DNA of 64,000 nucleotides from Rhizaria sp. SCN 62-66. Its lineage: Eukaryota. The stretch is taken from positions 1 to 64,000 of the forward strand of contig MEDY01000006.1 in the NCBI GenBank assembly GCA_001724265.1, written 5' to 3'. This document shows positions 5,177-47,625 of this stretch, one piece after another. The position numbers and the translations under genes are program-made. The first letter of the stretch is position 1; each line of letters begins with the position of its first letter. The notes beneath the pieces are model-generated. The model was not told the origin of the DNA, ran no database searches, and saw only the letters and a program-made list of their open reading frames with translations.

Positions 5177-5207
<31 letters not shown>

Positions 5208-8816: not shown

Positions 8817-11800
8817 TCACCAGGCCGGCTTCAAATGTCCGACGGCAGGCCTCTCGCCCCCCGCGGCCCTCTTGCTGCCGCCGTGGCCGCCGCTGCTGCT
8901 CGACGCCTTGGTCGTCGTCATGCCACCCTTGCCGCCCTCGCTGCTGTTGCTGTGGCCGTACATGGAGCGCGACAGGGTGCTCTGCACCACGGGCGGCGGA
9001 GGCAAGTGCACCTTGCCAGACTTGTTGTTGGCCGGCACCTCACGGTACGCAGACTGCAGCGCGGCGTTGCGCGCCGGTGAGCTCCCGTTGCCGTTGTTCG
9101 TGGCGTGGCGGCGCACAGGCGCAGCGGCGCCAGAGCCGGAGCCGGAGCCGGAGTTAGCGCTTGACAATGAGGAGGACGCAGAGGCGGAGTTAGCGCCAGT
9201 GTTGGGGAACGGGCCCACATTAAGCCCGTACGCACTCGCATCGTTGGCGTTGCCGCCGTTGTTGCCGCTAGGGTAGTTGTACTGGCTGGAGCTAAACGCG
9301 GGGTGCTGCTGCTGTTGCTGCTGCTGCTGCTGGCTGTTGTTGCTGTAGTCGTCGCTGTTGGTGTACTCGTTGGTGTTGTTGCCCTCAGTGAAGCCGTCGT
9401 TATCGTACTCGTTGCTGCTGGCACGAGAGCCGTTATTGTTGTTGCTATTGTTAGCCACCGGTGAGGTATAGAGATACTCGACCTCGCCGTCGCCGCTGCT
9501 CGTGTTGTTCTTGTGACCCTGCTGCTGCTGATCGCTCTACAGCTGCTGCGGTTGCTGGTGCTGGTAGGTTGGCCCACGCCCGCTGTTGCCGCCGTTGCCG
9601 CTGGCGCCCTGGTTGTTGCCGTTGTTGGGGTAGCGCAGCGAATACGCCTGCGCGGCCAACGGCGCGCCGCCGCCGGCGCTGCTGCTGGCGGTTGTCGTGG
9701 TGGTGCGCAGCGGGGCCGAGAACAGAGCCTGGCCTGGCGCGGGCGCCGAGAGCGCGCCGCCGCTGCCTCTGCTGCCGCCGCGGCTGGCCCCGCCGCGGCC
9801 GCTCGCGCCCGGCACGGCGGGCAGCGCGTAGGAGTCGCTGCTCGTGGCATTCCCGTTGCCGCTGTTGTTCGTGATCGCAGGGTACTGCTGCTGCTGACCG
9901 TTACCGCCGCGCAACTGCTGCTGCTGGTGTTGCGCGGGGCGGGAGCCGGGGCGCTGGCCCGGGCGCGTCTGGCCGCCCGCGCGGGCGCCGCCGGCCGCAG
10001 TGCCAACGCGCTTCTGTTGCGACTGCGACTGCTGGGACGGCTGCTGGCCGGCGCCGGAGTGCGTGTACCCGTTGGCCGCGAGGCTCTCAGGCGGCGCCAT
10101 GACGAGCGCCTGCATGCCGGGCGGCAACTGCGTGGCCAGGCGGGCCGTCTCGCCGCGCTGCCGGTGCGCGAGACAGTTCTGCAGGTTGCTGAAGCGCTGG
10201 ATGAAGCGATCCAGGTCCTTCTGCCGGCGCCGCAGCAGGCGCGCGCGTGCGGCCTCGACTCGCTGCAGCATCGCAGCCACTTCGGCGCGCTGCTGCGCGA
10301 CGACCTTCTGCTTCAGCAGCGCGAGCCGGACTTCGTTGTCCTCGCGGATCGAGCTGCGCTCGCGCGACTCAACAGCGTCGGCCTTGAGCTTGGCGCGGTG
10401 CGCCTCGAGGAAGTCCTTGGCCTTGGCCAGCGAGGCCTCGATCTTGCGCATCTGGAGCAGGTCGCGGGAGAAGCGGGGCCGAGACTCGAGCTTCATGTCC
10501 AGGTCGTCGAGCTCCTTCTGCATGTCGTCCTCGTGTTTCTGCTGCAGCTCGTACGCGGCCACCTCAATGCGGCCCTCGAAGTCGCGGATGCGCTCCGTCC
10601 ACACGGCGTCGAACGCGGCCATCTCGCTCGCGTGCGCGCCCTGGAGCTCGATCTGCTCCGTCACGTGGCGCTGTCGCAGCATCTCCAGCTGGCGCTGCGC
10701 CTCGTGCGTCTTGAGCTCCTGCAGCCGCTTCTTGGCGATCTCGGCCTCCAGGTACAGACTCTTCTTCTCGCAGTCCTTGAGGTATGCCTCGAGCACCGAG
10801 ATGAACTCTTTCACGGCCGCCGCGTCCGGGTCGCTCACGGTCGTCCCCACGCCGCCAGTGCTGTTCGCGCCAGAGCCGGAGCCTCCCGAGCCGGAGGACT
10901 GGGTCTGACCAGGCTGGTATGCGTTCTCGGAGCGGCCCAGGTAAGGGCGGACGCCGGTGAAGGCGCCGGTGCCGGGGCCCTGGAGGAACTGCCGTGGTGC
11001 GACAGCCGACGTGGTGTCGTCTGCGAGGTACATGTGGAGGTTCTGTGAGTATTCCTCCGAGCCCGCCACGCCCCAGGGCTGCAGCGCGCCGTTGTTCTGC
11101 GACTTGTTGTGCTCGTCGTCGTCGTCGTCGTTGTAGTCGCCGTCGGTGGTGCCGTAGTGGCTGTATTCGTCCACCGCGGTGGTGTTATCAGCTCCGTTGT
11201 TGCCGTGAGCGGCCGCAGCGGGGTCGACGACCGCGGTCGAGGAAGAGCTCGCGCCTGCATTCGAGTCAGACTGCTGCTGTTGCTGTTGCTGTGGCTCATG
11301 GGGCGCGTCGCGGGCGCTGGCGCGAGCGCTGTGGTGCCCGCTGTTGTCGCGTCCGCTCGCGCCGTGGTGCTGGTTGCCGTCGTGGACAGAGCGTGCCGAC
11401 TGGGCGGGCGACGCGTGCTGCGACCGCGGGGCGGCGGGCGCCTCGTCGCGCTGGCTAGCGCGGGCGCTGGTGTTGCCGCTACTACCCTGCACATGAGCAT
11501 GTGCAGCGGCCGACACAGCAGGGGCGGCGGCGCTGTTGTTGTCGCTGGCGCTGGCGCGCGCTCTAGGCTGTGCGCTGTGGGGGTCGCCGCTGTGGCTGTT
11601 GTTCATCGTCGCGTTGTCGTCCATGGCGGCAGCGGCAGCGAGCTCTGCCTGAATGCTGCGGGTCAGGTGGTTGTTATCGTCGTTCTGGTCGTCAACGCGG
11701 CGCGCGCCGGTGGGCAGGGAAGGAGCAGTGTACTCCGGCCCCGCGTTACCCGCGCCAGCAGCACTGTGGGCGTTGGCGTTGCCCGCCGCAGCAGGCGCAG

Positions 11801-12089
11801 GGGACGGCTGGTGTGCATGAGATGCAGATGCAGCGGCAGCAGGAGCTACGGCAAGACGGTCGGCCTCAGAGGTCCCCGTGCGCGCGGTTGCGGGCTGCTC
11901 CGAGACGAACGGGTCATCCGCACCGGCGTCGGCGTCGAATGCGAGCGGGCGCGGGAAAGCGACCTGGACCTGGTCCTCCTGGTCCTGCTCCTGCGGTTGG
12001 GGGTCGTGGTGGGGGTGGGCGGCGGCGCCGTCACCTGCGCTCGCGCCGGTGAGCGCGGACGGCCGAGCGGCTTCCGCACTGACAGACAT
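8817..12089 (-). CDS. Coiled-coil protein (~1090 aa) with low-complexity flanks; single CDS containing an in-frame TAG at 9539-9537
   Basis: ORFs 9537..12089 and 8817..9458 are in the same frame and separated only by one TAG (QQPQQL*SDQQQQGHK). Central helical domain EFISVLEAYLKDCE...YLEAEIAKKRLQEL...RFSRDLLQMRKIEASLAKAKDFLEAH resembles, from memory, an uncharacterised family of flagellated protists. Ends ...HLKPAW-TGA. Confidence 0.75.
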
Positions 12090-14780: not shown

Positions 14781-14811
<31 letters not shown>

Positions 14812-15331
14812 TGCTGCTGGGCGGCCGCGGTCCCCCGCGCCCTCGGCCGCGGGCGGGTCGAACCGCCGGTTCAAGCCCGCCGCGGGCTACGGCGCCGTGG
14901 CCTCCGACGACGACGACGACTGCGACGGCGGCAACAACAGCGGCAAGGGCAGCGCCAAGCCCCGCGGCTGGCGCCAGGAGGCCGAGGAAGACGCCGACGT
15001 GCTACTGCACCCCCCGGCCCGCGCCGCGCAGCCCCACGTCTCCGGCGCCGGCGTGACCGTGGGCTCCGGGCTGGTCTGCCGGCCGGCGCTGACTGTGGTC
15101 GCGTGGGTCACCGAGGACGCGCTGCTCTCCCTGCCCCGCGGGCTCGGCGGCGGCGCGCTCGACGCGTTTGCGGCCGCCGGGCCCGCCGCGACCAACGGCA
15201 GCGGCAAGGCGGCGGCGGCGGCGGCGAGTGCGCCGGGCAAGAGCGGCAAGGCGGGCGCTGCGGCGGGCGCGATTGCTGGCAACGGGAAGAAGGACGGCAA
15301 GAGAGGCGAGAAGTCGTGTGTTGTTATGTAA
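12737..15331 (+). CDS. A/B-type cyclin with a C-terminal extension ending in a CaaX motif
   Basis: Cyclin box MREILLDWLVDVHLKFKM...LLDRFLS...LQLVGCACLCVAGKYEE...MEARVLATLSFDL; C-terminal fold region FPPHLIAAAAV and RDKY. Intronless; ends TAA. Confidence 0.92.
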
Positions 15332-16200: not shown

Positions 16201-19143
16201 TTAGGCGCTCGTACTAACCTTGTTCACACCTTCGTTTGCACTTGCACTGAGATCAGGAACAACTTCGACCGGAGCGGTCGCAGCAGCGAGCTTTTTGGCC
16301 TCTTCCTTCTTGGCCTTGAAGAACGCCACCTTCTCCTGCTCCTTGGCCTTTTCCTCCGCGGCCTCGACGCTGTTCTTGCGCGCCCGGCGGATCCACTGCA
16401 GCAGCGATAGCACGCCCGACGGCGTCACGCCGGGGATCGCGGCCGCCTCACCGATCGTCGCAGGGCGGCGCGTGGCCAACTTCTCCCGCTCCTCGTTCGA
16501 CAGCGAAGCCACGTCCGCGTAGTCCATATCACGGGGCACGTGGACGACGTGGTCGACACGCATGCGCTTCACCTCAGCGATCTGCCGCTTGATCGCGGGG
16601 CTGTAGCTCGCCTCGACCTCGACCTGGTACTGCACGTCCTTGGGCACACCGGCGAGGACTTCGGCAGGCAGCGCGGCGGCGACCGAATCCCAGCCGACCT
16701 GCCCGCTGGCCAGGACGTCGATCGCGGACCGGCGCACGCTGTCGGTGACGACCAGTCCCGTCGCAGTCTGCCACTGCGCGCCCGTGAGCGTGAAGCCGGC
16801 CAGTGCGTCATGCGTCTTGGCCACAAGCTCGCGCTTTTTCAGGAACCGTCCCAGGCGCTCTGGCGTGACGAGACCGGCGCGTGTGTGGGCCTTGGCGGTG
16901 AGCCGCATGTCCGCGTTGTCGGCGCGCAGCAGCAGGCGGTACTCGCAGCGCGCCGTGAACATGCGGTACGGCTCCTTGGTGCCGAGCGTGGTAAGATCGT
17001 TGATCATCACGCCGGTGTAACCGTCCGCGCGGTCCAGCGTGAAGGGCGTGTAGCCGACGTTGTTGAGCGCGCGCGATGGCAGACACGGGTCCTCGCGCCC
17101 GCTGACGCTGCGCCGGCCCGTCCGCTCCTCGCACCAGGGCCCCGCGTTGACTGGCAGCCGCGGGACTGGGACACCGGCCTCGCGCGCGGCGCGGGCGCTG
17201 AGGCCGGCGTTGGCGCCGGCAATAACGCCCTGCGCACCGGCCTCCTCGTAGCCCGTGGTGCCGTTGATCTGGCCCGCCATGAAGAGCCCGCGCACGCGGC
17301 GCGACTCAAGCGCGGGCGTCATCTGCCGCGGGTCGATGTAGTCGTACTCGACGGCGTAACCGGGGCGGATCATCGCGACCTTCTCGAGGCCGGGGATCGT
17401 GCGCAGGATCTCCTCCTGCTCGCGCGGCGGGAACGCCGTGTTGATGCCCTGCGGGTACACCGTGTGGTCTGTGAAGCCCTCGGGCTCGAGCCACACGCGG
17501 TGCATGTCGCGGTCCGGGAAGCGCCGCACCTTGCCCTCGAGCGAAACGCAGTAGCGCGGGCCGCGGCCCTTGCCTTCGTTGCCCTCAAAGGACGGCAGCA
17601 AGTGCATGTAGTCGCGGCACTTGGCGTGAGTCGCGGCGACCGTCGCCGTGATGTGCGTAGCCATGAGCCGCGGCAGCAGCTCCGGCTTGACCGAGTCGTG
17701 CATGTATGAAAACGGCTCGGGCGGGTTGTCGCCCCACTCCTCCTGCAGGCCAGTGTAGTTGATCGTGCGCGCGTCGAGACGGGGCGGAGTGCCCGTGGTC
17801 ATGCGTCCCAGTCGCATCCCCGCCCGCTCCATAGTAAGCGCGAGCCCCACGGCAGCCCTGTCGCCGAAGCGGCCGCCCAGCACGCGCGTGTGCGGCCCCA
17901 CGTGCAACACGGCGCGCAGAAACGTCCCCGTGGTGAGGATGAGGTGGTGGCAAGCGATCACCGCGCCGCACGCCGTGCGCACGCCCGCAATGGTGGGCTT
18001 GGGCCGGCCCGCGGCCTCGTCGTCGCGCAACCGCGCCAGCCAGGCGTCGTCGAGCGCGGGGTCGCCGGTGAGCTGGAAGCGCGACGGCACGCGCGCGGCC
18101 TCCTCGGCGCTGGGCAGGTCGTTCATCAGCACGTCCTCGACGCTGGCCTCAATGACCGTGAGGTTCGGCGTGGCGAGCATCTCACGCTGCATCGCCGCCG
18201 CGTAGAGCCCGCGGTCGATCTGCGCGCGCGGGCCGTGCACCGCGGGCCCGCGAGAGCGGTTGAGCATCTTGTACTGGAGCCCGGACTCGTCGCAGAGGCG
18301 GCCCATGACGCCCTCCATGGCGTCGATCTCGCGGATCAGAGTGCCCTTGCCCACGCCGCCCATCGACGGGTTGCACGACATCGCGCCCACAGTCGCGAAC
18401 CGGTGCGTCACAAGCGCCGTGCGCGCGCCCGAGCGCGCGGCGGCCGCGGCGGCCTCGCAGCCGGCGTGTCCGCCGCCGACGACGATGACTTCGAAGCCCT
18501 CGGGAAAGCCGCCGGGGGGGATGGCGACCGACGGCGGGGCAGCGCCGGGGCCGGAGGCGGAAGAAATAACGCTGCCGTCGAGACCGACTGTGGGGAATGC
18601 GATATCAGGCGCAGAGGCGGAGGCCGTGACACTCGCACTGCTGGTGCTTGCTCTCGAGCCCGCGCTGCTGTCCGCATTGTTGCTGTTGCCGGGGAAGCAG
18701 GTGGCTGAGAAGTTAAAGATTGGCGCAGCTGTGCCGTCGTTCATCGTAGCATTAGCAGCGGCCGCAGCAGCCGCATTATCAGCCGCAGTCTTGATGGGGG
18801 CAGCGGTCGAAGCGAGCGAAGTGGCTCCCTCGGGAACGGAGGCCTCCAGGAAGGTGCGAGTCCAGGGGTCGAGGTTGGGGTCCTGCAGCGTAGCGATCAC
18901 GTCCTCCTTAGACTCGAGCGTGGTCTTCGGGCCCGCGGGGGTTGCAGCAGCAGCCGCAGCGACGGCGGGCGCAGGGACGGCGGCGGGCGCGGCCGGCTCA
19001 GGCACATTGGAGGAGTTCGAGACGGACTGCGAAGGCCAGCGAGGGGCGTTGTAAGGCAGGGCCGGGCCTTGCAGGGAGCGTGTAAGAAAAGCCGCGCGGG
19101 AAGCCGCACGGGCGACGCCCGGAATGCGGCTTGCCAACGACAT
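16201..19143 (-). CDS. MTO1: Mitochondrial tRNA U34 modification enzyme MTO1 (GidA/MnmG family)
   Basis: [17 protein letters not shown]-binding motif, [70 protein letters not shown]. Arg/Ala-rich presequence-like N terminus. Ends TAA. Confidence 0.96.
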
Positions 19144-19539: not shown

Positions 19540-20999
19540 ATGAGTCAGAATCAAGACCCTTTGGCACGTTATACGCGCCTTAGCAAGCTTGGCGAGGGAA
19601 CTTATGGCGTTGTGTACAAGGCCCAAGATCTCGGTACGTCTCGTCCCTAGTGGCGCTCCCGGTCCACCATTTATTACCCTCTTTCTCACAGTGTATACAT
19701 CGGGTTTCGCGTATTAACCTCCATATTTTCAGATACATGCGTTTAAGTTATGGAAGAATCTGCGCGTGTTGCAGACTTTTGCGGCCGTTTTCATCCTCCT
19801 GATGGACTTGCCTCTCAGCTTACCCCAGCTAACCTTGCCCACCTCTCCCACCTCGTCCTCCTTTGTGCCCCTGTAGTGACCGGCGAGTTCGTCGCCATGA
19901 AGAAGATCCGCCTCGAGCACGAGGACGAGGGTGTCCCCAGCACTGCCATTCGTGAGATTTCCCTTCTCAAGGAGCTCCAGCACGCCAACATCGTCAGGTT
20001 CGTCCCTACGCCGTCACCCCAATGACTCTCCTCCGAGGCACTTGCATCACATTTTCACCCTCATTTGCTCACTTCTGACTCTTCCGCGTCTGTATAAACT
20101 TTGTACCGCATAGCCTCCGCGACGTTGTTCACCACGACGCCAAGCTCTACCTTGTCTTCGAGTTCCTTGACCAGGACTTGAAGAAGTACATGGACTTCGT
20201 CGGCAAGGCGCTCCCCCCTCTTCTCGTTAAGGTACGCATCTTAATCACCACTAATCTGATCTCAATCGCAAATATATTTTGCCACCACATAGTATTACAC
20301 GTGTTAACTCTATTATACTTGTTTTTGCTTTGATTCACCTCACAGTCGTACCTGCACCAGATGCTCAAAGGCCTCGCCTTCTGCCACGCCCACCGCGTCC
20401 TGCACCGCGACATCAAGCCGCAGAATCTGCTCATCGACCAGCGCGGCGCCCTCAAGCTCGCCGACTTCGGCCTGGCCCGCGCCTTCGGCGTCCCCGTCCG
20501 CACGTACACCCACGAGGTCGTGACGCTGTGGTACCGCGCCCCCGAGATCCTCCTAGGCGGCAAGCAGTACTCGACGCCCGTCGACGTGTGGTCCGTCGGC
20601 TGCGTCTTCGCCGAGATGGTCACGCGCACGCCGCTCTTCCCGGGCGACTCCGAGATTGACCAGCTCTACAAGACCTTCCAGATCCTCGGCACGCCCAACG
20701 AGTCGCTGTGGCCCGGCGTGTCGCAGCTGCCCGACTACAAGGCCACCTTCCCCAAGTGGGCCCCCAAGGACCTCGCGGCCTCCGTCCCCGGGCTCTGCGC
20801 CGACGGCCTCGACCTGCTGCGCCGCATGCTTGCGTACGAGCCCGCGCAGCGCATTTCGGCGCGCGAAGCGCTGAACCACCCGTATTTCAAGGAGCTCAAC
20901 CAGCACCGCGAGCAGCAGCAGCAGGCGCAGCAGGCGCAGATGCAGCAACAGCAGCAGCAGCAGCAGCAGGCGCAGCAGGTCCAGCAGGCCCAGCAGTAA
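19540..20999 (+). CDS. CDK1: Cyclin-dependent kinase, PSTAIRE type (CDK1/CDK2/CDKA) with polyQ tail. Exons 19540-19633, 19877-19997, 20114-20231, 20346-20999
   Basis: Spliced translation gives [91 protein letters not shown]. Three GT-AG introns preserve frame. Ends TAA. Confidence 0.96.
20903..20996 (+). repeat. CAG-rich polyglutamine-encoding tract at the CDK C terminus
   Basis: Encodes ...[29 protein letters not shown] before TAA. Confidence 0.9.
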
Positions 21000-21953
21000 G
21001 CGACATGCAGGAAGAAGTTGACGGGGAACAACGAGTAACACACAATATAGGTCAAGAACGCGCTTGTAATTTGTAATGAACAACGCGCATGCGCAACAGT
21101 GACACTGTGGCACACATAAGTGCATGGTACTCATCAGCTCAGTGCATGGTACTCCTCAGTTCGAAAATCATTCCATCTTGGTTTTCAGCTGATGTTTTGC
21201 ATTTCTTGCAGTTTTTTTTTTTGTGTTGTGCCATGTTTGTTGTAAGCCTGTTTGATCCGGTCCAGATGATCCATGTGATCGTTAGTTTTGCTTATCCATA
21301 CTGAGCCTTTTGGCCCCCCCCCGCTGAGCATTGCCTTGCTTAGCTTTGCTTATATCAAGCTTCGTCAATCATACTAGTCTCGCGTTAGTATGTTCTAGTG
21401 TGTCTAGTGTTGATTTGAGACTCACCTCATTGCGTTGCCGTTTTCACACGAGCAACGCACGAGAGCGAGAGAGATATAGAGAGAGCCCATTAAGAGCCTC
21501 TCCGTTGTGCTCTGTAGCTGTATAGATGGCTTTAGTGACGTCTATCCGAGACAGAACCCCGCACAACAACAGTAACAACCAGTACGATTGGTGCACATGA
21601 TGCAACTGTGACACGCGCAGAATATATGCGGGTCCCCACAGTACTTGCTTTGCTTTTTGTTATTGTCTTGAGTATTACAATAGTTTTTAGCAGATTTTTG
21701 TGTCGTGCAGTAAAACAATTTCAGAATCAGAATAAAAAAACGTTTTAACAGCAATGAGTTGACAAAATAACTACGTGTATTCCTGATAATATTAACAAAC
21801 TAGAACAAGCTATATTCAAATATGGAGATGCTATACGGCCAGAGATAGCAAACCAAAAGCCAATGGCCCAATAAGAGCACATTTGCACCAACACGCGAAA
21901 ACACACCACTGATGATGAGCTCTTTGTTGAGTGGTTTAGTTTCTGCAATGCGC

Positions 21954-24740: not shown

Positions 24741-25299
24741 CGGAAATGCGGATCTGCGAAAACGCGGTCTGGGCAAAGGGTTTAGGGGGTCTTGGGAGGA
24801 GCTGGAGAGAGACCTATGCAGGAGCAAGAGAAGAAATAAAGTCAATAATAGATACCCGATAAAAAAATTTCTTCGGTAAGCCGCACTAAAAATGTTCTGG
24901 CGATGGAATTGTGAAGCAATTAACGATTGACGGAGTGGCTGCGGGGCGGTGCTCTTGTCTCACTTCTCGGTCGACCGCTCGACGATTTTTTCGGTCCACC
25001 GGCAGATCTTCAGCAGTTGGCTGTCCAAGTTTAGTTGCCACCATTATGTTTAGGTCTGTACTTTGCCAGACAGTCGTTATTGATGAGTTATGCAGATTGA
25101 TACCGCATGTTTAACTTACACTACTTTGTGATTCACCTGAATAATTTCTATTGACGATCAGTTTCTTCCACACCAACCAGATTCTAACGTGCGTTGAAGC
25201 TCTCGTTTGTCCCCGCTTCTCGACCTCTCTGTCACGCGGCTACCCGATCTTCCTCGCCTCTGCTCGCCTCTCTTGGTGCTTGGCCACCTTGAGCCGCCC

Positions 25300-34200: not shown

Positions 34201-35895
34201 ACCCCCCCTGCGCATGGCCACTCTCTTCAGACCGGCGCCAGTTCTGTTCACGGTCACTCTGAGGGCGAGGCCATTGACCCGCGGTCACCGCGTTCGGCGA
34301 TCGAAGTCCTTGATCACAGTTGTGTCCACGGCCACAATCATTCGCATCACGCGCATGGTCATCCATCTGCTCGTGCCCAATCTGTTGTTGATCCTTCGTT
34401 GCCTCCTGCTGCAGCCGCTGCAGCTGAGTTTGCGCTTGCAACGTCCCGCCGCCACCGCCCCGACACGCCCCGCTTCCCCGCTTCCGCCATTGCAGCGCAA
34501 CCCAACACTCTCGCGCCCAGTGACGGCACCGCAACCAATGGCAGCGCGGCACCCGCGCCCACTTATGGCGCATTGCAGGCGCAGCGGCCCCTCGCGGGCA
34601 CGCGCGCTGCCGTGGCTGCAGCCGAACGCGCCGAGGCCGCCGCCGCGCTAGAGCCCGCCGCGTACGCCGTGGTGACCGCGACGGAGGGCGGGGCGGACGC
34701 CATGCCGCGGCGGCTGCTGCTCATCAGGGCCGCGCCGCCGCCGGTGCTGGCGCCTGTTCCGGACGCGCCCGTCCGGTCCTACAGCCCCGCGTTTAACGAC
34801 CGAAGCTACGCCAACGCCGCGTCTGGTGACAGTCCGGCTGCTAACGCAATCAGTCCTCGCGATGGTGATGGTAGCGGCTCCGGTGCTGTCTCCGCACGTT
34901 CTTTTGCGTCTCCACGCTCTCCTGGTGACAACAATGATAACGCACCCAACAGTGGTCGTGGTGCTAATTCAGGGCCGATGTCTGCCCGTGCAGCTGTTCC
35001 CCACACACATGCGACTCACGCGAACCCCCGTGCTAACGTATATCCTCTTGCATCCGCGCCTGCGTACAGCGCCCCGTCGCAACCGCTGATGTCAACGACC
35101 GCCGCTGCCGCAGTTGCAGCCGCTGAGACGGCCCGTTTGCGGCAACAGCAGACAATCGCGACTGCGGCAACCGTGCTTGATTACACAGAGCGCGCGCTGT
35201 CACGTGCCCATGCGATTGAAAACCGCGCGGCGATGCTGCAAAGCCAAGCTGCCTCGTCGTCTCTGTCGCCCATCACAGATTCCGCTGTGCCAACTGGTGA
35301 TGTTGCTATGACATCGGCTGAAGCAGCGGGAGTTGCGTCACCGTCAGCGCCCGCAGCAGATGTCATTCTGAGTCCTTTCACTGCCGCTGCCGCCGCCGGC
35401 GCCGCTGCTGCCCGACTGGCCGCGCTTGTCCGCGAAGACGAGTGGGCGACTGCTGCTGCTGAGGCTGCCGCTGTGGCGGCGGAGACGGAGGCTGCGGAGG
35501 CCGAGGCCGAGGATGAGGCGACCGCGCTTGCTGCTGCGGCGGCGGAGGCGCAGGAGCTGGTGCGGGCACGCGCATATGAACCGTTCCCGCAGCCGTGGGA
35601 GTACGGCGACTACGGCGACGACGAAGAAGACGGCACCAACGCGAATGCGAATGATAATGGCGTCGCTGGTGATTTTGGAGGGAACGGGACCGGTGTTGGC
35701 CGAGCGAGGCGCAGTGGTGGGCATGCTGGGCGCAATGCTAACGACAGTAGTCAGGCTGCCGATATCAGTGCTGCTGCTCCGTCTAGGGCCTTGCCGGTGA
35801 CAGCGTCTGCTAGCCAAGGATTGCTGGGGACTGTACAGTCAACCGCGATCGTTGGCCAAGAAGAAGAGGAGGACGGCCGCAGTGGTAGGATTTAA
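25300..35895 (+). CDS. Very large (~3500 aa) predicted type I membrane protein: signal/hydrophobic N terminus, Ser/Thr/Ala-rich ectodomain, Cys-rich juxtamembrane module, one TM helix and a long disordered tail; in-frame TAG at 32887-32889
   Basis: ORFs 25207..32889 and 33028..35895 share a frame and the 46 intervening codons are open. Hydrophobic stretch LHSLLLLACLATLAVLVPTVTSA; Cys motif DCASILGG...DSCGLCSGG...DCAGVCFG; TM LVMTGILAFIALIALAVGAALP followed by basic residues. First ATG 25300; ends TAA. Confidence 0.7.
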
Positions 35896-36391: not shown

Positions 36392-37081
36392 TCACTTGCC
36401 CTTGCTCATCAGCTGCAGCGTGGGCACGGCGACGGGCACCGCGCCGGTCTCCAGGTCCATGTAGTTGATCACGTGCTCGGGGATCTCGATCGTAGCGCCC
36501 TCGAGCGCGGGGTGCACCTTACACTGGCACGCGAGGCGGCTGAAGTCGGTCGCGTCGGCGGCCACGTCCAGCATGTCGCACTCGTCCAGCGAGGGCGCGG
36601 GTAGCGCGGCGTAGACGGTGGGCGGGAGGATAATGTGGCAGGTGGAGCACTGGCCCTTGCCGTTGCAGGCGGCGACGATGAGGTCCACGCCGACCGCCTG
36701 GAGCGTCTTGAGCAGCGGGCGGTTCGGAGGGGAGCGGACCTCCTTGCTAAAGCCGCCGGGGCCGGTGACCGTGAACGTGACTGCCGGAGTATAAAATAAC
36801 CACATGTTTTCGACGAGAGTGCAACACAAGTGAAGTGTGAGTAAGCATGAACGATGGGATAATGCAGGAGGTCAGCAGGTGCGCGCGCGAGTGAAGAACG
36901 ATTGATTTAAACGTGGTATAGTGGACCAAGTTAGACAGAAGATATGCCACGTACCAACACTAGAAGAAGTGTCTGTAAAACGACGGGACTGCGCGGGAGC
37001 GGCGGGGAGTGCGGAGGCGAGCGAAGGTGCAATGGATGCGGTGCGAGTCGCGCAGCGATGCACAGCGCGGGACAGAAGCAT
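36392..37081 (-). CDS. Mitochondrial adrenodoxin-type 2Fe-2S ferredoxin. Exons 37081-36955, 36780-36392
   Basis: Presequence-like MLLSRAVHRCATRTAS...SRRF; cluster ligands ACNGKGQCSTCH and SRLACQ; DECDMLD acidic patch. Intron GTACGT...GCAG in phase 1. Ends TGA. Confidence 0.92.
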
Positions 37082-37482: not shown

Positions 37483-40147
37483 ATGTCGTCCCGCCGCCGC
37501 ACGGCCGACCATGAACCTGCGGTCGCAGGCTCCGACGCAGCACACCAGCGCTCCAAGACCGCTCGCATCGCCCATTCGCCCGCCAAACGCGGCTCCTCCA
37601 GCTCCGCCGGTGCGCGGACGGACCTGTCCGCGCTGCTGCCCCCGCCGTCCGCGGTCTCTGACGCGGACGACCCGCGCCTGCGCGCGCTGCGCGACCTGCG
37701 TCTGTGCATCTGCGACGGGCCCACGCAGTTCACCGTGTTCAAGTCGCGGCTCACGGTTAAGGGCGAGCTGGGGTACCGCATGATCCGCTGCACGCACGGC
37801 GTCCAGGAGGGCGACATGTACTTCGAGGTCCGCTTTAACCCCACCGCGGAGCAGCAGAGCAGCGCCGCCGCTGCGGCCGCCGCGGCCGCCGTGGCCACCG
37901 GCAGCTACAACACGAGCAGCGACGCCACCACTGCGTTCTACGGCAGCGCCGGCCTGGGGCCAGACGCCCTCTCGCCCTACAGCACGAGCTCAGGCTTCAA
38001 CACAACATCCGGCTCGAGCGCCAGCTCCAGCTCGAGCTCAAGCTCCAGCTCCAGCGGCGGCCGTGACCGTGACCGCGAGAAGTCCGAGAAAGAGAAAGAC
38101 CGCGACCGCGACCGGCACCAGTCCGAGCCCACGGCTGCGGGCGCGGCTCCCCCGCCCGCGTCGCCGTTCCTGTCGTCGCCGTCGCCAGCCAACATCCGCG
38201 TGGGCTGGTCGCGCGAGCGCGGCGACCTGGACGTCCCCGTCGGCTTTGACGAGCACTCGTACGGCTACGGCGGCTCGCTCGGCCGCCGCTTTCACCGCTC
38301 GCTCGGCCGCGACTACGCAATCGCTCCCGCGCCCGGGGACGTCATCGGCTGCCTCATCTCTCTGCCGGTCGTGTCGACGATGCATGGCGCCGGTGCCGCC
38401 GCCGCCGCAGCGGCCGCTGCTGCTACTGCTGCGGACGCCACGGCTGGCAACGGCAGTGTTGACGACAGCAGTAACATCAGCCGCAGTAGCAGCAGCAGCA
38501 GCAGCAGCAGCGGTCGCATCGCTGCCGCGGCATCTGACGTTGCGGGCGCGAGCGGTGCCGCCACTTCTTTGCCGACCCTCTCCCAGTCGCAGGCGCACGC
38601 GCAGGCGCAGTTGCTGGCGGCCGCAGCGTCCAACACCACGACTCCGGCCGCCCACAACAGCACCGCTGTCGAGGCCGACCGACTCATGTCGGACCTCAAA
38701 GACCAGTTCCGACGCCGCTTCACAACGCTCCACGGCTCGTCCATCACTTTCTTCCGCAACGGCAAGTCGCTCGGCCGCGCCTTCGACAACATCCCCGGTG
38801 GGCCGTACTTCCCCGCCGTCTCGCTGTACAACGGCGCTAGCGTCACGCTCAACTTCGGGCCAGACTTCGCATGCCCGCCTCCGGGCTGCGTGCCCAGGTA
38901 CGTGGTGCCTCATCATTCACACATGAATCGACGCAGAGTTAGAGTTTTTCTAAGATATTCAAAGTGAGATATTTTGATAAAAGCGCGTTCTATGTTATAT
39001 TTTAGTTTCATTGCTCACCGATTCGGTCTTTGCCGTCAAACGTGTTTCTTCTTTGTTTCCCTTTCGCCCCGCTCTCAGGGTGACCGTGGTTGAGGCCGAC
39101 GTCGACACCCACGCCGCCGAGACGCTGCTGCCGCCCGGACTCCTCGACGCCTACACGCGCGCTGTCGCGGCCGCCACCGAGGCCGCCGCAGTGTCGGCGG
39201 CGGCCACGGCGGCGGCGGCCTCGGCCTCGGCAGCCGCGGCGGCGGCGGCAGCGACCGCCGATGCCGCTGCCACGGCCACGGCTGCGGCCGGCGGCGGCTC
39301 TACGCCTGTTGCCGGCGGTGCTGGCGCTGCCGGTAGCAACAGCAGCAACAGCAACAGCACAAGCAGCAGCAACAGCAGCAAGAGCAAGAGCCAGAGCCAG
39401 AGTCACTCTCGGGGCGGCAGCAGCAGCAACAGCAACAGCAGTAGCAGCAGCAGCACTGGAGCCAGCGGGAGCTTGACTCCCCTTGCAGCGACGGCGACCG
39501 CGGCCGCCACCGCCGAGGCCTCCGCCGCCGCGGCCGCCGCCGCCGCCGCTGCCGCCGCGGCCGCCGCCGCGAACCCGCTCCCGCCGCTGCCCTTTCTGGG
39601 CGGCTTAACTTCTCTCCCCGCGGGCGCGCACGCGGCGCTGGTGGCGGCGGTGGGGCAGGGCGACGGCGCGGGCGTCTGGGCCTGGACCGACCACGCTGAC
39701 GCCACTGGGGGGCCCATCGATCTCACCGGCAACAACAGCGGCGGCAGGCGCGGTGGCGGCGGCGGCGGCGCGTCGAAAAAGTCCAAGAAGGGCGTGCACG
39801 GGCTGCAACGCAAGCAGCAGAAGAAGCGGCGGCCGCAGTCGACGGCCTCTGCGGCGCCCCTGCCCACTGGAGCTGCGGGCGCATCGGGTACGGGGGGGGA
39901 GGACGGCGACGGCGAGGGCGGCGACGACGACGGCGCGGCCGACCAGCAGGCCGACGGCAGCGGCGGCAGCGGCGGCAGCGGCGGCGGCGGCGGCAGCGGC
40001 GGCGGCGGCGGCAGCGGGGCGGGCGCGGCGAGGGCTCGCACGCGCGTGTGCGTGGCAGTGACGCGGATGCGGCAGGCTTTGTACCCCGCGCTGGTACCCA
40101 ACCCGAAGCTCGAGGAGGAGGCCGAGCTGTTGCAGATGATCAACTAA
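37483..40147 (+). CDS. ASH2: ASH2L/Bre2/TRAUCO-like SPRY-domain protein (COMPASS H3K4 methyltransferase subunit). Exons 37483-38897, 39079-40147
   Basis: SPRY segments GYRMIRCTHGVQEGDMYFEV, RVGWS...LDVPVGFDEHSYG, GDVIGCLI, SSITFFRNG, YFPAVSLY...VTLNFGPDF..PP match the Ash2 SPRY pattern. Intron GTACGT...TCAG. Ends TAA. Confidence 0.85.
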
Positions 40148-40553: not shown

Positions 40554-41768
40554 ATGGCATCGCTTCAGGTCGTCGAGAAGCTGGACAGCGCCGAGCCGCC
40601 GCTGGTGGCTGTGTTCACGGCGGGCATCCCCGCCGCGGTGGCCGAGGAGGAGGACTTCGTGTTCCAAGTCTACAAGCGCGAGCGCCCGGCCGCCAAGAAC
40701 GCGCCCCCCGTCGTCGAGACGCTCATCTTCGGTGAGGGCAACGAGACACACTTCCTGGGCTACGACGACAAGAGCACGACGCTGGCCAAGAACGACAACA
40801 ACTACGCGATCGGCGTCTTCCGTCCCAATTACGTCGGCAAGTCTGGCCCCATCATCCGCATCGTTCCTGCGGCCGGCCTCTACGTCATGAAGGAGCTCAA
40901 CAACAAGGACGCTGGCGGCATTGACACTGTGACGATTAACGACCTCGACTACAACACTGTGCGCACGCAGCTCACCGAGCGCTTCGGCTCCCGCAAGCGC
41001 CGCCGCGAGCTGCGCTCTGAGCAGGCCAACGCCTTCGACATCAACGCCAACAAGGCCGCCGCGCTGGCCGCGCAGCTCGCGCTCGAGTCTGCCGCCGAGC
41101 TGTCGGCCGCGGCGCCCGACTCTGGCATCGACGGGCGGCTGGCGAAGCTGCCTGCGTTCGACGACAAGACGGAGAACCCCGAGCAGATCTACGCCTTCTC
41201 CGCGCTGCTGCCCGCCGAGGCGTGGGACTCGCTGGACCACCGGTCGATCCTCGCGCCCACCGAAGACGCCGACTCGCTGCGCGCCTCGCTGCCGTCATTC
41301 GTGCTCTCTCGCATGGGCACCGCACAGGCCCACGTGCGCAACGGTGACAAGGACGCGGGCAAGCTGCTCGCGCGCAAGCTGCTGCACCTGACCTTCCTGG
41401 TGCGGCTCATCCGTGCTGGCAAGGGCGTGCGCGGCAAGTCGGTGGAGGAGTTCACGATCGCGCCGCCCGCCGTGGTGCACGTGCTGCGCAAGACGTACTT
41501 CGACGACTCGGGCCGCATGGACCAGGAGGCGCGCTCGAAGCTGATGTGCCACACGGCTGTGCTGACGCTGCTGTGCTCGGACCGCTGCGCCGTCGAGGCT
41601 GAGGGGCTGGAGCGCCTCGGCAAGGACCTCCAGCTCGCCGTCAGCAAGCTGCTGCCCTTCTTCCAGGAGGTCGGCTGCAAGAACGCCAGCAAGAGCAAGG
41701 CCGCGCTGCTTGCGCCGCTGCAGCTGCCCGCGCTCGGCCAGCCGGGCGGCAACGCCAAGCGCCGCTAA
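40554..41768 (+). CDS. RPA49: RNA polymerase I subunit RPA49 (A49/POLR1E)-like
   Basis: NYAIGVF, RTQLTERFGSRKRRR, LPAFD...PEQIY, KLMCHTAVLTL, LGKDLQL...FQEVGC, ALLAPL fit the A49 family pattern. Probable 5'UTR intron 40447-40547 (GTATGT...ACAG). Ends TAA. Confidence 0.8.
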   Translation: MASLQVVEKLDSAEPPLVAVFTAGIPAAVAEEEDFVFQVYKRERPAAKNAPPVVETLIFGEGNETHFLGYDDKSTTLAKNDNNYAIGVFRPNYVGKSGPIIRIVPAAGLYVMKELNNKDAGGIDTVTINDLDYNTVRTQLTERFGSRKRRRELRSEQANAFDINANKAAALAAQLALESAAELSAAAPDSGIDGRLAKLPAFDDKTENPEQIYAFSALLPAEAWDSLDHRSILAPTEDADSLRASLPSFVLSRMGTAQAHVRNGDKDAGKLLARKLLHLTFLVRLIRAGKGVRGKSVEEFTIAPPAVVHVLRKTYFDDSGRMDQEARSKLMCHTAVLTLLCSDRCAVEAEGLERLGKDLQLAVSKLLPFFQEVGCKNASKSKAALLAPLQLPALGQPGGNAKRR

Positions 41769-42185
41769 GCAAGCGAACAAACGAACCACCGCACAGGGAA
41801 ACAAGCGAGATGTTGCGAAGCAAAGCAGTGCGATGCGATCGTGTGTTGATTGCGGCGGTGGGTGGTGTATTTTATATGATATTGACATTTACTTAGTTCA
41901 GTCATTAGTTTACATGTATTTCACGATAATACAATTGATGTTGTAAAATAACGGATTAACACGAAGGTGTTTGACCTGGTCAGCTTGATGTTAAATGGTG
42001 GCCGAGATGCGCATCAACATAAACGAAACAAACTTGTATTTTAAGGAACAAACCTTGCACGTACACAATAAATAAACAAATAACTACGAAGCAAATATGA
42101 TCGCACTGCAATTGACAAAAACCTGACATCATCCACATGACATCAACGTAAGAACATTGCATCCAACTCGTGTTCACATCTCGCT

Positions 42186-44145
42186 TCACTTGCGCGCGGC
42201 GTGCTTCCAGTGGCAGATGTCGCCGTCCTGCATGATGTACGTCTTGCCCTGGGTCTTGAGCTTGCCCGCCTTCTTCACCTCGGCCTCTGCAAAGCGGAGG
42301 AAAACAATGGAAACAATGACAGTGAGAGAAAACAACAACAACACAAAAAAAAACACAACAGAAAGCAACAGATAGCGATGTGAGACGAGTCAGCATATTG
42401 ACGCAGCAAGATTTAACTTCACTGAAAAGTGCATGATCAGTTTAAAATCACATCAGGACAAACCATTTTAAGCAAGACGTGATAGTGTAAGTGAGGTATA
42501 GTTTCAAAGGATATGCACGAGAGTACGTACCGGAGCCGAGCTGGTTGATGTCGTCAAAGGCGTAGATGTCGCCACAAATGAAGTTCTTCTCGAAGTCGGT
42601 GTGGATGACGCCCGCGGCCTGCGGGGCCGTGGCGCCTTTCTTGACGGTCCAGCTGCGCACCTCGACCTCTCCAACGGTGAAGTACTGGATGAGGTTCAGC
42701 GCGGTGTAGCCCGATGTGATGATCGACGGCAGCATCGACTTGCTCACGTCGGCGGCCTCGTAGGCGGCGCGCTGGATGTAGGACATGTCGTCGGCGAGCA
42801 TCAGCGGCTCCGCGTCCGCCGCGCGCGGCGTCTCGGCCACGGCGTCGGCGATATAGCTCGCGCGGTCGGCGTCCGAGTCCATGAGCATAAGGTCAGCCTC
42901 CCAGTCGCCGCTGAAGATGAGACTGGGAGCGCCCGGAGAACGCTTGGCGACCCAGTCGCGGACCTTGCCGTACCAGTCGCACTTGCCAGTCAGGTAGTCC
43001 TCGGCGGAGGCGTTGAGCAGGTACACAATCGGCTTGGCAGAGAGCAGGGCGAGCTCGTTCAGAGCCTCGGCCTCAGCCTGGAGCAAGAGGGAAAGCAACA
43101 GCGAAGAAGACGAGGATTGAAAAGATGAGTTGAGTGCGACATGCAGTCATTGTTACACATAAACAATGCGATTGGAAGAATAAAGGAACACCCTGTACAA
43201 ATACAGCAATATAAACAACAACATGACATATTTTGAGCAAAATTTAATCTAATACACATTGTTGTGCTGTAGATATGCGTACCTCGGTCCATAGCCCCTC
43301 GCGCACGTCGGTGCCGGCCTCGAGCAGCGCCGCGGCCTTGCGGTAGGCCTCCAGCTGCACCAGCAGAGCCGCGTTAGACGACTGCTTCGAAGCGAGCTTG
43401 TTCGCGCGGTCCAGCGCCTGCTTCACGCGCTCACGGTCCTTGGCGATGAGCTCGTACGAGATGATTTCGAGGTCGCGGATGGGGTCGACGGAGCCCTCGA
43501 CGTGCTCGATCGCGCGGCTCTTCTGTACACGCAAAAATAGAGAAAACAAGGGAAAATATATAGAATTGATTTTAAGTCCAATTTGATTTGATTCAGACGC
43601 ATTTCAATGTTATAAACTTCAGTTTCGTCGATATATCTGCATTATAAGCCGAGTGGCGACTGACGTACCTGGTTGGGGAAGACGCGCACGAGGTGGTAGA
43701 TAGCGTCAACCGCGCCGATGTGTGACAGGAACTCATTGCCGAGCCCCTTGCCTTCGGACGCGCCCTTGACGAGCCCGGCGATGTCGGTGATGGAGAGTAC
43801 GGCGGGGACCGTGTTCTGCGGCTTGGTGTTGGCGACGAGCCAGTCGACACGCGGGTCCGGCACCTTAACGACGCTGTTGTTGGGGTCGATGGTGCAGAAG
43901 GGAAAGTTGCTCGCGGGCACGTTCTGCATCGACAGGCAGTTAAACATGGTGCTCTTGCCGATGTTGGGCATGCCGACAATGCCGATCTTGACGCTGTTGC
44001 CGGGCCGGCCCAGCTGCCGCTTCGCCGGCTCAGTCGGGCTCAGGAAGCGCTGGGGCACACGCACGACCGGGAGGGCGGCCGCAGAGGCGCCGAGGGAGGT
44101 GCGCAAGGACAGTGAGGCCGCCTTGAGCACGGTGCGACGCAACAT
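42186..44145 (-). CDS. OLA1: Obg-like ATPase OLA1/YchF with a mitochondrial-type presequence. Exons 44145-43669, 43522-43283, 43077-42531, 42286-42186
   Basis: [12 protein letters not shown] (P-loop), [47 protein letters not shown] domain YFTVG..EVRSWT...[14 protein letters not shown]...[11 protein letters not shown]. Three GT-AG introns. Ends TGA. Confidence 0.95.
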
Positions 44146-44397
44146 GCGCTGAGGGAGCTGGGCGGGCGCGCGCAGGAGGTGGGTGCGAGGAAGCAGGGGA
44201 AGAGTGCGGCGGCGTGTTCAAGTTTAGTTCGTGAGTTAAGTTCGATGCGAGAGTCCGTGTGATAGCACTATAATTTTATGACAATATCAGAAATGCCAAT
44301 TTAATTATAATTCTCTAATTATACTGTCTATTTTTATTGTTACACTCCAGTGCACAACTTTTCCCACTCCAGCCAGTCCACATCTTACCGCAGCCCC

Positions 44398-47300
44398 ATG
44401 TCCCATCCACTGCACAAGCCGCGGCCTGGGTACCTGCCTCACAAGAAGCACGGTAACCGCCCACCGCCGCCAACCGTGCTTGCCGCCGCCGGCGCCGCAC
44501 CCCTGAAGCCCCAGTACGGCGTTGATCCACGTCTGGAGCTCTTCGTGCCCCCGCAGCAGCGTCGCGCGCGGTCGCCCGCAGCGATAAAAGCATGGCGCTC
44601 TCTGCTATCCGCGGTTCCGGGGCTTGCGCACAGCGCGTTCGGGGAGCTCCCCGCGCGGATGCAGCCTGCTGCGGACGAGTTCACTGTGCTGGCAGCCGTT
44701 TTCGCAGTGTTCGACAGCTCTTACTTCGCTGATAACGAGTTTACTCCTTCTGTAACGGCTCCGAAGCAGAGTGATGTGAACGAGAGCAATCACGATGTTC
44801 CTCAGTCGTTCTCTCTGGTGACTATGAGCACGGGCACACGGTGTCTTGGCGCGAGCTTGCAGTCCCGCGCCGGGCTCGTTGTCGAGGACGGGCACGCGGA
44901 AGTCAAGTCGCGTCGCACGCTGTGCCGTCTGTTGATGCACGACCTGGCAGCGCTCTGTCTCCGCGTGCGCGCTACTATCAACGCGTTCAACAATAACAGC
45001 AACGAAAGCAGTACCGATGACGCTAGTGCTCGCGGCACAAGTCCCACCAAGGTTGTTATCGTGCGGTCAACGTTCTTTGAGTGGGCATTATACCCCATTC
45101 TGACAACTTCAGCCGCCGACACACCTGTCATTGATGCTGCTGCGCCCACAGACACTACTGCGACAGAGGCGGATATCCCAGCTGTGACGGCGGGTGTGAC
45201 CGCGCCCACGGTCACTCTGCGTCCTGCCCCGAGGCCTCGGCTGCGCCGCGGCGTGAGCTTCGCGCTGTACGTCTCACAGCCGCCCTGCGGCTCCGCTTCG
45301 TACGACCTGCCGCGGCCTAACTTTGACCCCGACTCCCAAGCATCGAACAGCAGCAACATCAACGCGAGCACAGGGGCTAACACAGACAACAGTAATGACA
45401 ACGCACAATCATCTGATGCAAGTGCGAGCGCGATCATAGACACCACCACCACCACCACCAGTGCTGCGTCGAGCTCACCGTCATCTGCTTGCCCACTGCC
45501 ACAGTTACTCGCTGACTCATCGGCGACGGACCCAGCCCGCCTGCAGCCGAAGCCAGGCCGCTCGGACCTGCCCGCCGCGCTGCGCACGCGCTGCCAGAGC
45601 TGCAGCGACAAGCTCGCCCGCCACTGCGCGCTCGGGCTCCAGGGCGCCTGGCTCGCGGCCGCTGCGGCGAGCCCGCTCACTGACCGCGAGCGCGAGCAAG
45701 AGCAAGAGCAAGCGATCGCATTGACTAGTGGCTGCGAGAAGGGACGTTTGTGGGATGTCAGGCGTGATTTGGTGCTGCCGTGGACGGCTGTTGTTGTGTC
45801 AGCTGGGGTTGACCCGGCGATCACGCTGCCCATAGTCACGGAGGTGGCGTCGACTGAGTCTGGTAACGCTGCCCCGGATTCTCAGAGCCAATCTGACACT
45901 GCAAGCACTGCTGCTTTAAACACGACTCTCACTGGTTATAAGCAGAGTGGGACATGGGATGACGCATCTGTGACTCAATACGGCACTATCAATGGGCTCA
46001 AGCTTGCTTTTTACGACCGTATCCGTGGTCACTTTGCGCCCGAGTCACTTACGAACAAGTCTCAGTCTCACGCAGAGGCAGACGAGCAGTCTCAGTCTGG
46101 CCTGCCTGCACCGCCGCTGCCACCACTGCTCGCAATCGCGCCTTCGGTTTGTTTCCCCAATTCGCGCTGGGCTCTGCTCAGGCAGGCGGCCGCGGAGGCG
46201 CGGGCAAGGCAGGTCGAGGCGCAGAAGGAGCAGCAGCAGCAGCAGCAGCAGTTTGAGCAAGGGCAGCTTCAACAACAAGGTCACCAACAGGAGAAGAACG
46301 ATCAAGACAATGTCTCTGACTCGCAATCCGCAGCACCAGCGAAGGCTAAGGACGCGTCTAGGAGTCATCACCAATCTAAGGGGGGTCCATCTAAGGGCCC
46401 CGGTGGTGCTCCGATGAGCAACCGCAGCGCGAAGCTCTTGTCTTTAGTGCCGCGCGCGCCGCGGTGCCCACCCATGGCGCTGGCGTGGTGCGCTGTGCCC
46501 ATCTTCGCGATGCCCTCAGGCCAGGGCTCAAACAACAGCAACAGCAACATCAATACTAGCTCTGACTCGAGTCCAGGCTCCAGCTCGGTTGATATCTCGG
46601 TCACGATTGCAGACAAGCTCGCTGTCACGGCTGTGACGGTGAGTTCTCTGAACTCCAGCCAGAGCACTGCTGCTGTCGGTTCAGTGACCGTGCTGCCGCG
46701 GCTGACCGTGAGCTGCGGCAACGACTGGTTCGAGACCGTGGTCGAGCGCTACGGGCTCCGCCAGGGCGCGCAGAAGCGGCCGGTCGAGGACGACACGAGC
46801 GAGGAAAAACGGGCGAACGCGCATCTTAATGCTGTTGATGCGAATGCTGCGACAGATACCACTTCTGCGGCGACAGATGATGACGTGATCACTCAGAAGT
46901 AGCCGCCTCAGCCAGGTGACGCTGAGAGCAGCAGCAACAAGGCTGAAGTCAGTGCTGATGTCGTCCTCCCAGCTTTTGCTGCTGCCACTCCAAATGTCGC
47001 TGCTGCAACTGAGTCTGCAACCGCTCCCGCTGCTGCTGATGTTGAGACTGCGTTCGTGTCGTCGTCATACCCGGTGCCTCGTGACGCCTTCAGTCCGCGT
47101 GCCTGCGTCCCCGCCCTGTCGTCCCTGTCGCTGATGTGCGCGTTTCGCGACATCACGCTGCTGTGGCCCACTGCCGCGAGCACCGTACCTATGCCTGCTA
47201 GTGGTGTGTCGACGGCAACGTGCGGGGCTGATGCGTACGCAGCGCGGTTGCGCACTGCCGCGGCGTTGCCTGCCGCTACTGCGAAGGCGTACCTGTACAG

Positions 47301-47625
47301 CGTCGCCAACGAGGCGCAGTCGCGGCTCAAGTTTACACACCCGACGTATGGCGAGAGGAAGGATGATGCCCTGAATATCAACGGCCTTGATGCAAGTACT
47401 ACGCATTCCAGCAGTGTTACTACGAGCGAGACTGCGACTGGGGGAAGTCAGGCTGTGACGACAGCCCAAGGTTTCGGTCTCCGCGGCTGGCCACCCAAGG
47501 AGCAAAAGTACACGCAGTTTGTCCTGCCCGAGCCGTACAAGATGCGGGACACACTGCAGCGGCCGTGGGCCCGTCTGGGTCTTAGCTCCTGGCTCTGGGA
47601 CGACGATGAGGCGAAACGGATCTGA
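44398..47625 (+). CDS. tRNA-specific adenosine deaminase ADAT1/Tad1-like (ADAR-type deaminase domain, no dsRBD seen), ~1075 aa, with an in-frame TAG at 46900-46902
   Basis: Motifs TGTRCL, DGHAEV, LYVSQPPCGSAS, KPGR, SCSDKLAR...LGLQGA, GLRQG. The same frame continues past the TAG into SSLSLMCAF and GWPPKEQKYTQF, which resemble the family's terminal elements. Ends TGA. Confidence 0.85.

Follow-up and report, generated by a model that had tools for sequence, protein, structure and literature searches.

The eukaryote represented by contig MEDY01000006.1 of assembly GCA_001724265.1 probably decodes UAG as a sense codon, leaving UAA and UGA as its terminators. The stretch analyzed here, positions 1 to 64,000 of that contig (hereafter the window), contains three long genes, designated g1, g2 and g3, each with a single in-frame TAG (TAG1, TAG2 and TAG3, respectively; Table 1). 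A sequence-only reading of the same DNA had already proposed this code. The proposal gains here from homology on both sides of TAG3 to a protein of a related organism, from recurrence of TAG2 and TAG3 in contigs of other studies, and from the lack of an intron signature around them; its reach is limited to three codons in one 64-kb window.

Measured from each TAG to the next stop, the same frame stays open for 239, 1001 and 240 codons in g1, g2 and g3, in agreement with the earlier figures of about 240, 1000 and 240, and the following triplets are AGC, AAC and CCG, as previously read. In g1, the G+C content at third codon positions (GC3) is 0.86 before TAG1 and 0.85 after it. The first ATG in the tail beyond TAG1, read from the translation, lies about 195 codons downstream. 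This rules out a separate gene, and the tail can only be made as an extension of the upstream open reading frame (ORF). The 850-residue ORF that stops at TAG1, P0005, is recorded from 4 contigs, and a protein search with g1 residues 470-1090 matched only this fragment of g1 itself. Pfam searches found no family in g1 or in g2. For g2, the evidence consists of the 1001 open, coding-like, GC-rich codons that follow TAG2; local G+C around TAG2 is 0.55-0.83, compared to 0.38-0.41 in introns.

A codon-usage log-likelihood ratio (LLR), trained on nine confident ORFs, was used to follow coding signal through the three sites. Before and after each TAG alike, frame 0 scores highest, and profiles of 25 codons drawn across each TAG give the same result. 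The LLR per codon in g1 is 0.46 before TAG1 and 0.56 after it, making the tail the strongest coding signal in the gene. The 300 nt that follow each TAG have a G+C of 0.57-0.71, and their LLR per codon ranges from +0.16 to +0.80. ORF ends with TAA or TGA served as controls. All 19 tested have a further in-frame stop 1-41 codons on and a negative downstream LLR, while downstream G+C is 0.31-0.49 in 17 of the 19, the two exceptions being stops inside introns. Across 23 coding segments totaling 15,348 codons, TAG occurs in frame three times, TAA never and TGA never, bearing out the earlier statement that gene models lack internal TAA and TGA. Other in-frame TAGs within ORFs bounded by TAA or TGA fall in 5' leaders or introns. 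UAG is found inside three otherwise intact genes whose coding signal continues in the same frame, with homology on both sides of the codon in g3.

That homology comes from the adenosine deaminase-like gene. The g3 protein matches Pfam family A_deamin (PF02137) with an E-value of 3.6e-23 and 83 bits, against a cut-off of 27, and its HAE, PCG and SCSDK motifs, all located before TAG3, align to ADAR2 chains. When the 240 residues after TAG3 were searched against 1.84 billion representative proteins, two matches were returned: the gene's own fragment and P0003 (phmmer E = 8.8e-05), a 458-residue "hypothetical protein" encoded on a 20,980-bp JGI/IMG contig of a related organism. P0003 aligns to g3 both before and after TAG3 (Table 1), and the two C-termini coincide within a residue or two. 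Because P0003 is a single uninterrupted ORF that matches both sides, the flanks of TAG3 belong to one protein in the relative. The block before TAG3 is itself continuous with the deaminase domain in g3. In ADAR-type domains the C-terminal portion is part of the fold, and a protein terminating at TAG3 would lose the conserved blocks that lie beyond it.

Additional searches with g3 recovered little else. The whole protein retrieved only its own fragment P0001, and a search with alignment A1 found P0003 again and no other sequence; as just the best 8000 candidates were scored, low-complexity words probably swamped the candidate lists. An AlphaFold2 model of g3, made from the single sequence with TAG read as Gln, had a mean pLDDT (predicted local distance difference test) of 36 and was unusable. 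Database entries derived from g3 include an 834-residue fragment that stops at TAG3 (P0004, recorded from 4 contigs) and a 144-residue fragment that lies after it. P0001 is a 617-residue ENA fragment identical to the start of g3 except for its last six residues, which do not match the window and which resemble a sequencing adapter read in frame; its contig probably ends in adapter. The start Met of P0003 aligns with an internal Met of g3, at about residue 690, and P0003 is without the whole catalytic domain despite the 20,980-bp length of its contig. Its frame is interrupted upstream, whether by the contig edge, by an intron or by an in-frame stop, perhaps a TAG.

After intron correction, the 18 ends in the window comprise 11 TAA, 7 TGA and no TAG. 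The same counts had been given before, and they were reproduced only once two apparent ORF ends had been recognized as intronic, the TGA at 23037 in Mpp10 and the TGA at 38965 in a gene for a SPRY protein. The probability of finding no TAG among 18 ends is 0.006 if TAG makes up 25% of stops, matching the value calculated earlier, 0.018 at 20%, and 0.15 at 10%. Within this one 64-kb window, UAG is absent from gene ends and neither UAA nor UGA occurs in frame. The case is built on coding continuation together with the P0003 homology, not on the census alone.

Several observations concern the terminators and leaders themselves. TAA is the commonest terminator (11 of 18) despite a GC3 of about 0.85. 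The base that follows the stop is a purine at 15 of 17 true ends, and likewise at the Mpp10 end, which looks like a strong termination context. A TAG-ending ORF at 21800-22444 on the minus strand was rejected as a gene end, being a non-coding frame over the last Mpp10 exon. At the start ATGs of five genes, the nearest upstream in-frame stop is a TAG (12095, 19152, 37417, 51106 and 57198), 1-21 codons before the ATG. The sequence upstream is non-coding by LLR at four of the five, while at 57198 a mere two codons separate the TAG from the start of the ORF, too few to be judged. These five TAGs are read as lying in 5' leaders.

A number of findings weigh against sense decoding of UAG. The sites are only three, or 0.02% of codons (3/15,348), and all of them fall in low-complexity sequence, which might put up with a truncating allele. 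GC3 is low, at 0.65-0.68, in g2 and g3. The conserved genes of the window (those for the kinases, Sua5, cyclin, MTO1, Mpp10, A49, WDR35 and YchF) are all without TAG. If the three TAGs are counted as true stops, TAG usage becomes an ordinary 3/21; since that proportion would be unremarkable, the census depends on the argument that the TAGs are read through. In this codon usage about 65% of random nonsense changes would give TAG, and three TAGs in three has a probability of 0.28 under the mutation model, so the fact that all three are TAG does not discriminate. The part of g3 after TAG3 has no A_deamin match in Pfam and no meaningful match in PDB, whether searched as a single sequence or as a two-sequence profile. 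ARAGORN found no tRNA gene in the window, which also has no Rfam matches and does not contain the eRF1 gene. No RNA contig bridging any of the TAGs was found among the matches listed. Finally, were UAG to encode Gln, it would account for 3 of 613 Gln codons, far under the roughly 8% given for Iotanema (PMC5304391).

The likeliest alternative keeps the standard code and takes the TAGs to be recent nonsense mutations, in truncated alleles or in young pseudogenes whose downstream regions have not yet decayed. The placement of the sites in poorly conserved, low-complexity stretches would suit it, as would the low GC3 of g2 and g3, which suggests weak constraint, the expectation that TAG is the commonest nonsense product, and the ordinary frequency of TAG stops that would result. 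ADAT1 is dispensable in yeast, which counts on the same side. We nevertheless regard it as unlikely. Three hits among about 22 genes would amount to massive decay, yet there is no TAA or TGA in 15,348 codons and no frameshift; no frame-shifted continuation appears in the ORF map or the gene models. Their absence speaks against decay, because ongoing gene decay should produce such breaks too. The 1001 codons beyond TAG2 remain open, conservation with the relative is as good in the blocks after TAG3 as in the block before it, and genuine TAG terminators number 0 of 18.

TAG2 and TAG3 are also stable between data sets. A contig from run X3, whose study differs from the likely source of the window, spans 32731-33839, including TAG2, with 0 differences, and a contig from run X7 spans 46758-47011, including TAG3, again with 0 differences. 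The runs belong to two other studies, dated 2017 and 2025, and no variant at TAG2 or TAG3 was present among the matches listed. This persistence argues against recent nonsense mutation, with one reservation to be added to the points above: the repeating contigs may sample one widespread population, in which a fixed nonsense allele would look alike.

Under a second explanation, UAG is still a terminator and the three genes depend on gene-specific programmed readthrough or on leaky near-cognate decoding. Eukaryotes are known to read through UAG with near-cognate tRNAs for Gln or Tyr, and the great rarity of in-frame UAG would fit. We consider this improbable as well, for reasons of context, length and content. 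The sequences 3' of the TAGs (AGCGAT, AACGAT and CCGCCT) have no motif in common, as the sequence-only reading had noted from their first triplets. The extensions, 239 to 1001 codons long, are not short functional extensions, and that of g3 carries conserved parts that would be missing from the short form. No gene in the window normally ends in TAG (0 of 18).

A third possibility, and a very unlikely one, is that the ribosome never meets the TAGs because atypical introns take them out of the mRNA or RNA editing alters them. In its favor, introns do occur in this genome and account for two apparent ORF ends, and a GTGCGT lies 116 nt upstream of TAG2, with the TAG itself able to act as an acceptor. 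The candidate intron so defined has a length of 119 nt, which is not divisible by 3, although the reading frame is the same on either side of it, and a G+C of about 0.6 rather than the 0.38-0.41 of introns. More generally, G+C around the three TAGs is 0.47-0.87, never intron-like, and a sequence scan found no intron-like tract at any of them. There is no 5' splice-site match upstream of TAG1, and the GTRNGT matches that precede TAG2 by 116 nt and TAG3 by 261 nt yield no frame-keeping intron ending in CAG. The same frame is kept across all three TAGs, which has a chance of 1 in 27 if the flanks are unrelated exons, and the region that matches TAG3 is a continuous ORF in the relative. Judged by sequence features such as these, splicing or editing of the TAGs is unlikely. 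One joint, 31261 to 32965, would skip TAG2 and was rejected: it also occurs in DNA run X3, has 21 letters on its shorter side and has AC..AC ends. It starts in a GAC-rich repeat, has no shared 8-mer at its other side, and is most likely a repeat or foreign-contig artifact.

Sequencing or assembly error is all but excluded as an explanation, and nothing was found in its favor: contigs from other runs are identical at TAG2 and TAG3, with no variant among the matches listed, and 4 contigs are on file for each of the ORFs that end at TAG1 and TAG3.

If UAG is a sense codon, the residue inserted is a matter of prior expectation: about an even chance for Gln, a small one for Leu, and a somewhat larger one for all other residues together. 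Neither the Gln-rich context of the sites, with CAG one step away, nor the Leu in P0003 is treated as evidence for the amino acid. The P0003 alignment does pair TAG3 with Leu; the column falls inside a low-complexity stretch not aligned by BLAST, where the alignment is unreliable. Decoding would presumably rely on a tRNA with anticodon CUA, descended from a tRNA for Gln, Leu or another amino acid, since no other anticodon reads UAG but not UAA, and UAA stays the main stop. The same argument for a CUA anticodon is made in PMC5304391. A less likely arrangement would have a near-cognate tRNA read UAG efficiently. In either case eRF1 would presumably recognize UAG poorly or be outcompeted. UAG may first have been lost from gene ends and may now be returning by mutation at positions where any residue is tolerated. 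The low count, 3 in 15,348 codons at low-complexity, weakly constrained sites, suggests that the reassignment is young or weakly used.

Nuclear codes in which UAG has changed and UAA remains a stop provide the closest comparisons. Rhizaria sp. exLh (Sainouroidea) reads UAG as Leu and has UAA as its dominant stop, with 384 in-frame UAGs spread over 71 genes, many of them where Leu is conserved (PMC5304391). Like the present case, it is a non-ciliate nuclear code with UAG alone made sense, so that UAA and UAG are uncoupled. Sainouroids inhabit dung, which is not far from a wastewater habitat, and the sole alignable column pairs TAG3 with Leu, a weak likeness given its low complexity. Unlike exLh, the window has 3 UAGs in about 22 genes, and no conserved position is among the three sites. 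Iotanema spirale is an anaerobe with reduced mitochondria, whereas the host of the window has MTO1, ribosomal L22 family, LYR protein and ferredoxin genes. Iotanema (Fornicata) reads UAG as Gln, with UAA the dominant stop and UAG making up about 8% of Gln codons (PMC5304391). It resembles the present case in the reassignment of UAG alone, in low usage and in the proposed CUA-anticodon tRNA, and differs in that UAG usage is more than ten times lower in the window.

Phyllopharyngean ciliates read UAG as Leu or Gln and prefer UAA as stop (PMC11687900). They too have a UAG-only change with UAA the preferred terminator, found in metagenome data (PMC11687900). They are unlike the present case in that suppressor tRNA genes were found in the ciliates (PMC11687900), and the window differs from them in its 63% G+C, its many long genes per contig and its introns of 124-183 nt. 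In contrast to exLh, Iotanema and the phyllopharyngean ciliates, UGA is also a common stop here (7 of 18). In the oligohymenophorean ciliate PL0344, UAA and UAG encode different amino acids (PMC10553269). The meanings of the two codons are uncoupled there as well, with both codons sense in PL0344, whereas UAA is the main terminator here (11 of 18 ends). The ambiguous codes of Condylostoma, Parduczia, karyorelicts and Blastocrithidia likewise place stop codons inside genes. There, several stop codons are affected and a codon found inside genes also terminates them, while in the window none of the 18 gene ends is TAG and neither TAA nor TGA occurs in frame. Searches of the literature, covering main texts without supplements, found no report of a wastewater eukaryote with a changed genetic code, and a term search of the text obtained for PMC12021597 found neither "genetic code" nor "stop codon".

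The window has a G+C content of 63% and its genes are ordinary eukaryotic nuclear genes. Family matches of Pfam type identify a protein kinase with EF hands, Sua5, a cyclin, MTO1/GidA and Mpp10. Also encoded are a SPRY protein, RNA polymerase I A49, WDR35/IFT121, a second kinase, a 2Fe-2S ferredoxin, a YchF GTPase, a ribosomal L22 family protein, a SNARE, a partial ribosomal L27e and a LYR protein. The sequence recurs in bioreactor, wastewater and sludge metagenome runs from several studies, dated 2015-2025, and its source is therefore an uncultured eukaryote; a slightly divergent strain is present in run X4. The nuclear genome is GC-rich and intron-poor. The host is probably flagellated, because it has a gene for the intraflagellar-transport protein IFT121, and its genes for mitochondrial translation and respiration, with products that include MTO1, an L22 family protein, a LYR protein and a ferredoxin, point to functional aerobic mitochondria. 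Set against the features of ciliate genomes, its 63% G+C, many long genes on one contig and introns of 124-183 nt lead us to judge that it is not a ciliate. Scans of metagenome contigs with the A49 protein and with P0003, and of genome contigs with the WDR35 N-terminus, found no relative; the ESM Atlas, queried with the WDR35 N-terminus, confirmed the family and nothing further.

The introns have a recognizable form. All five that were mapped, four in WDR35 and one in the SPRY gene, start with GTRCGT (four GTACGT, one GTGCGT) and end with CAG. The four WDR35 introns are 124-183 nt long with a G+C of 38-41%, compared to about 65-70% in exons; because introns have this composition, introns, leaders and intergenic DNA can be separated from exons by composition. 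The GTRCGT..CAG signature could help spot further contigs of the host. Two genes show why ORF ends had to be corrected. Mpp10 (21954-24845, minus strand) has at least two introns, and its exon at 22510-22992 matches positions 330-491 of the 529 in the Mpp10 profile. The SPRY ORF at 37483-38967 and the next ORF, at 39011-40147, form one gene, joined across a 181-nt intron (38898-39078, GTACGT..CAG) whose removal keeps the frame by arithmetic.

Two further observations concern gene composition. The kinase/EF-hand gene (1719-5558, plus strand) has 1279 codons, in which a protein kinase domain at the N-terminus is followed by EF hands (residues 485-540), a domain order resembling that of calcium-dependent kinases. 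The three long low-complexity genes at 25300-35895, 44398-47625 and 60093-63956 have a GC3 of 0.55-0.68, compared to 0.82-0.92 in the other, confident genes, and two of the three contain a TAG.

Table 1. Positions of the TAG-containing genes, their in-frame TAGs, conserved blocks, other gene ends and mapped introns in the window
Feature	Position	Strand	Remarks
g1	8817..12089	-	Coiled-coil, low-complexity; 1090 codons; ATG 12089, TGA end 8817-8819; one in-frame TAG
TAG1	9537..9539	-	In frame in g1; CAGCTG-TAG-AGCGAT; Q/N-rich stretch; 239 open codons after
g2	25300..35895	+	Giant, low-complexity; about 3530 codons; first ATG 25300, TAA end 35893-35895; one in-frame TAG
TAG2	32887..32889	+	In frame in g2; GCCACA-TAG-AACGAT; 1001 open codons after
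g3	44398..47625	+	ADAT1-like adenosine deaminase; 1075 codons; TGA end 47623-47625; one in-frame TAG
TAG3	46900..46902	+	In frame in g3; CAGAAG-TAG-CCGCCT; low-complexity insert between conserved blocks; 240 open codons after
Conserved block before TAG3	46696..46797	+	P0003 residues 97-130; BLASTP E = 3e-07, 18/34 identical; position worked out from residues 768-801 of the translation starting at 44395
Conserved blocks after TAG3	47041..47604	+	P0003 residues 265-451; BLASTP E = 1e-22
TAA end, kinase/EF-hand gene	5556..5558	+	
TGA end, Sua5 gene	8105..8107	+	
TAA end, cyclin gene	15329..15331	+	
TAA end, MTO1/GidA gene	16201..16203	-	
TAA end, multi-exon protein kinase gene	20997..20999	+	Exons from about 19747
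TGA end, Mpp10 gene	21954..21956	-	True end; ORF-end TGA at 23037 intronic
TGA end, 2Fe-2S ferredoxin gene	36392..36394	-	
TAA end, SPRY gene	40145..40147	+	37483-38897 joined to 39079-40147
TAA end, RNA polymerase I A49 gene	41766..41768	+	
TGA end, multi-exon YchF/OLA1 GTPase gene	42186..42188	-	Last exon corresponds to positions 54-83 of the 84 in the YchF-GTPase_C profile
TGA end, ribosomal L22 family gene	48858..48860	+	
TAA end, two-exon LYR-family gene	49736..49738	-	
TAA end, WDR35/IFT121 gene	56017..56019	+	Gene start 51136
WDR35 introns, mapped	52428-52573, 52715-52838, 53008-53151, 53355-53537	+	More lie downstream
TAA end, SNARE-domain gene	58101..58103	+	
TAA end, low-complexity ORF	60093..60095	-	1287 codons; no Pfam family

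Nuclear codes in which UAG is changed and UAA is a stop are rare; PMC5304391 names two non-ciliate lineages and PMC11687900 a few phyllopharyngean ciliates. If sense decoding of UAG holds genome-wide, the host of the window would be another case of this rare known variant, possibly at an early stage. As a tentative proposal, to which we give slightly less than an even chance, the window would record an independent, early-stage, UAG-only reassignment in a hitherto unsampled, GC-rich, probably flagellated, aerobic eukaryote of wastewater bioreactors, a codon-capture intermediate that is maybe shared with the relative encoding P0003. The stage that follows the freeing of a codon is debated, between codon capture and an ambiguous intermediate, and is hard to observe; a genome with three UAGs in 15,348 codons could show that stage just after the codon was freed. 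A true reassignment here would also provide a further test of why UAA and UAG usually change together. For annotation, gene callers that apply the standard code truncate these proteins, as the two g3 fragments in the database illustrate, and other eukaryotic bins from wastewater metagenomes may be misannotated in the same way.

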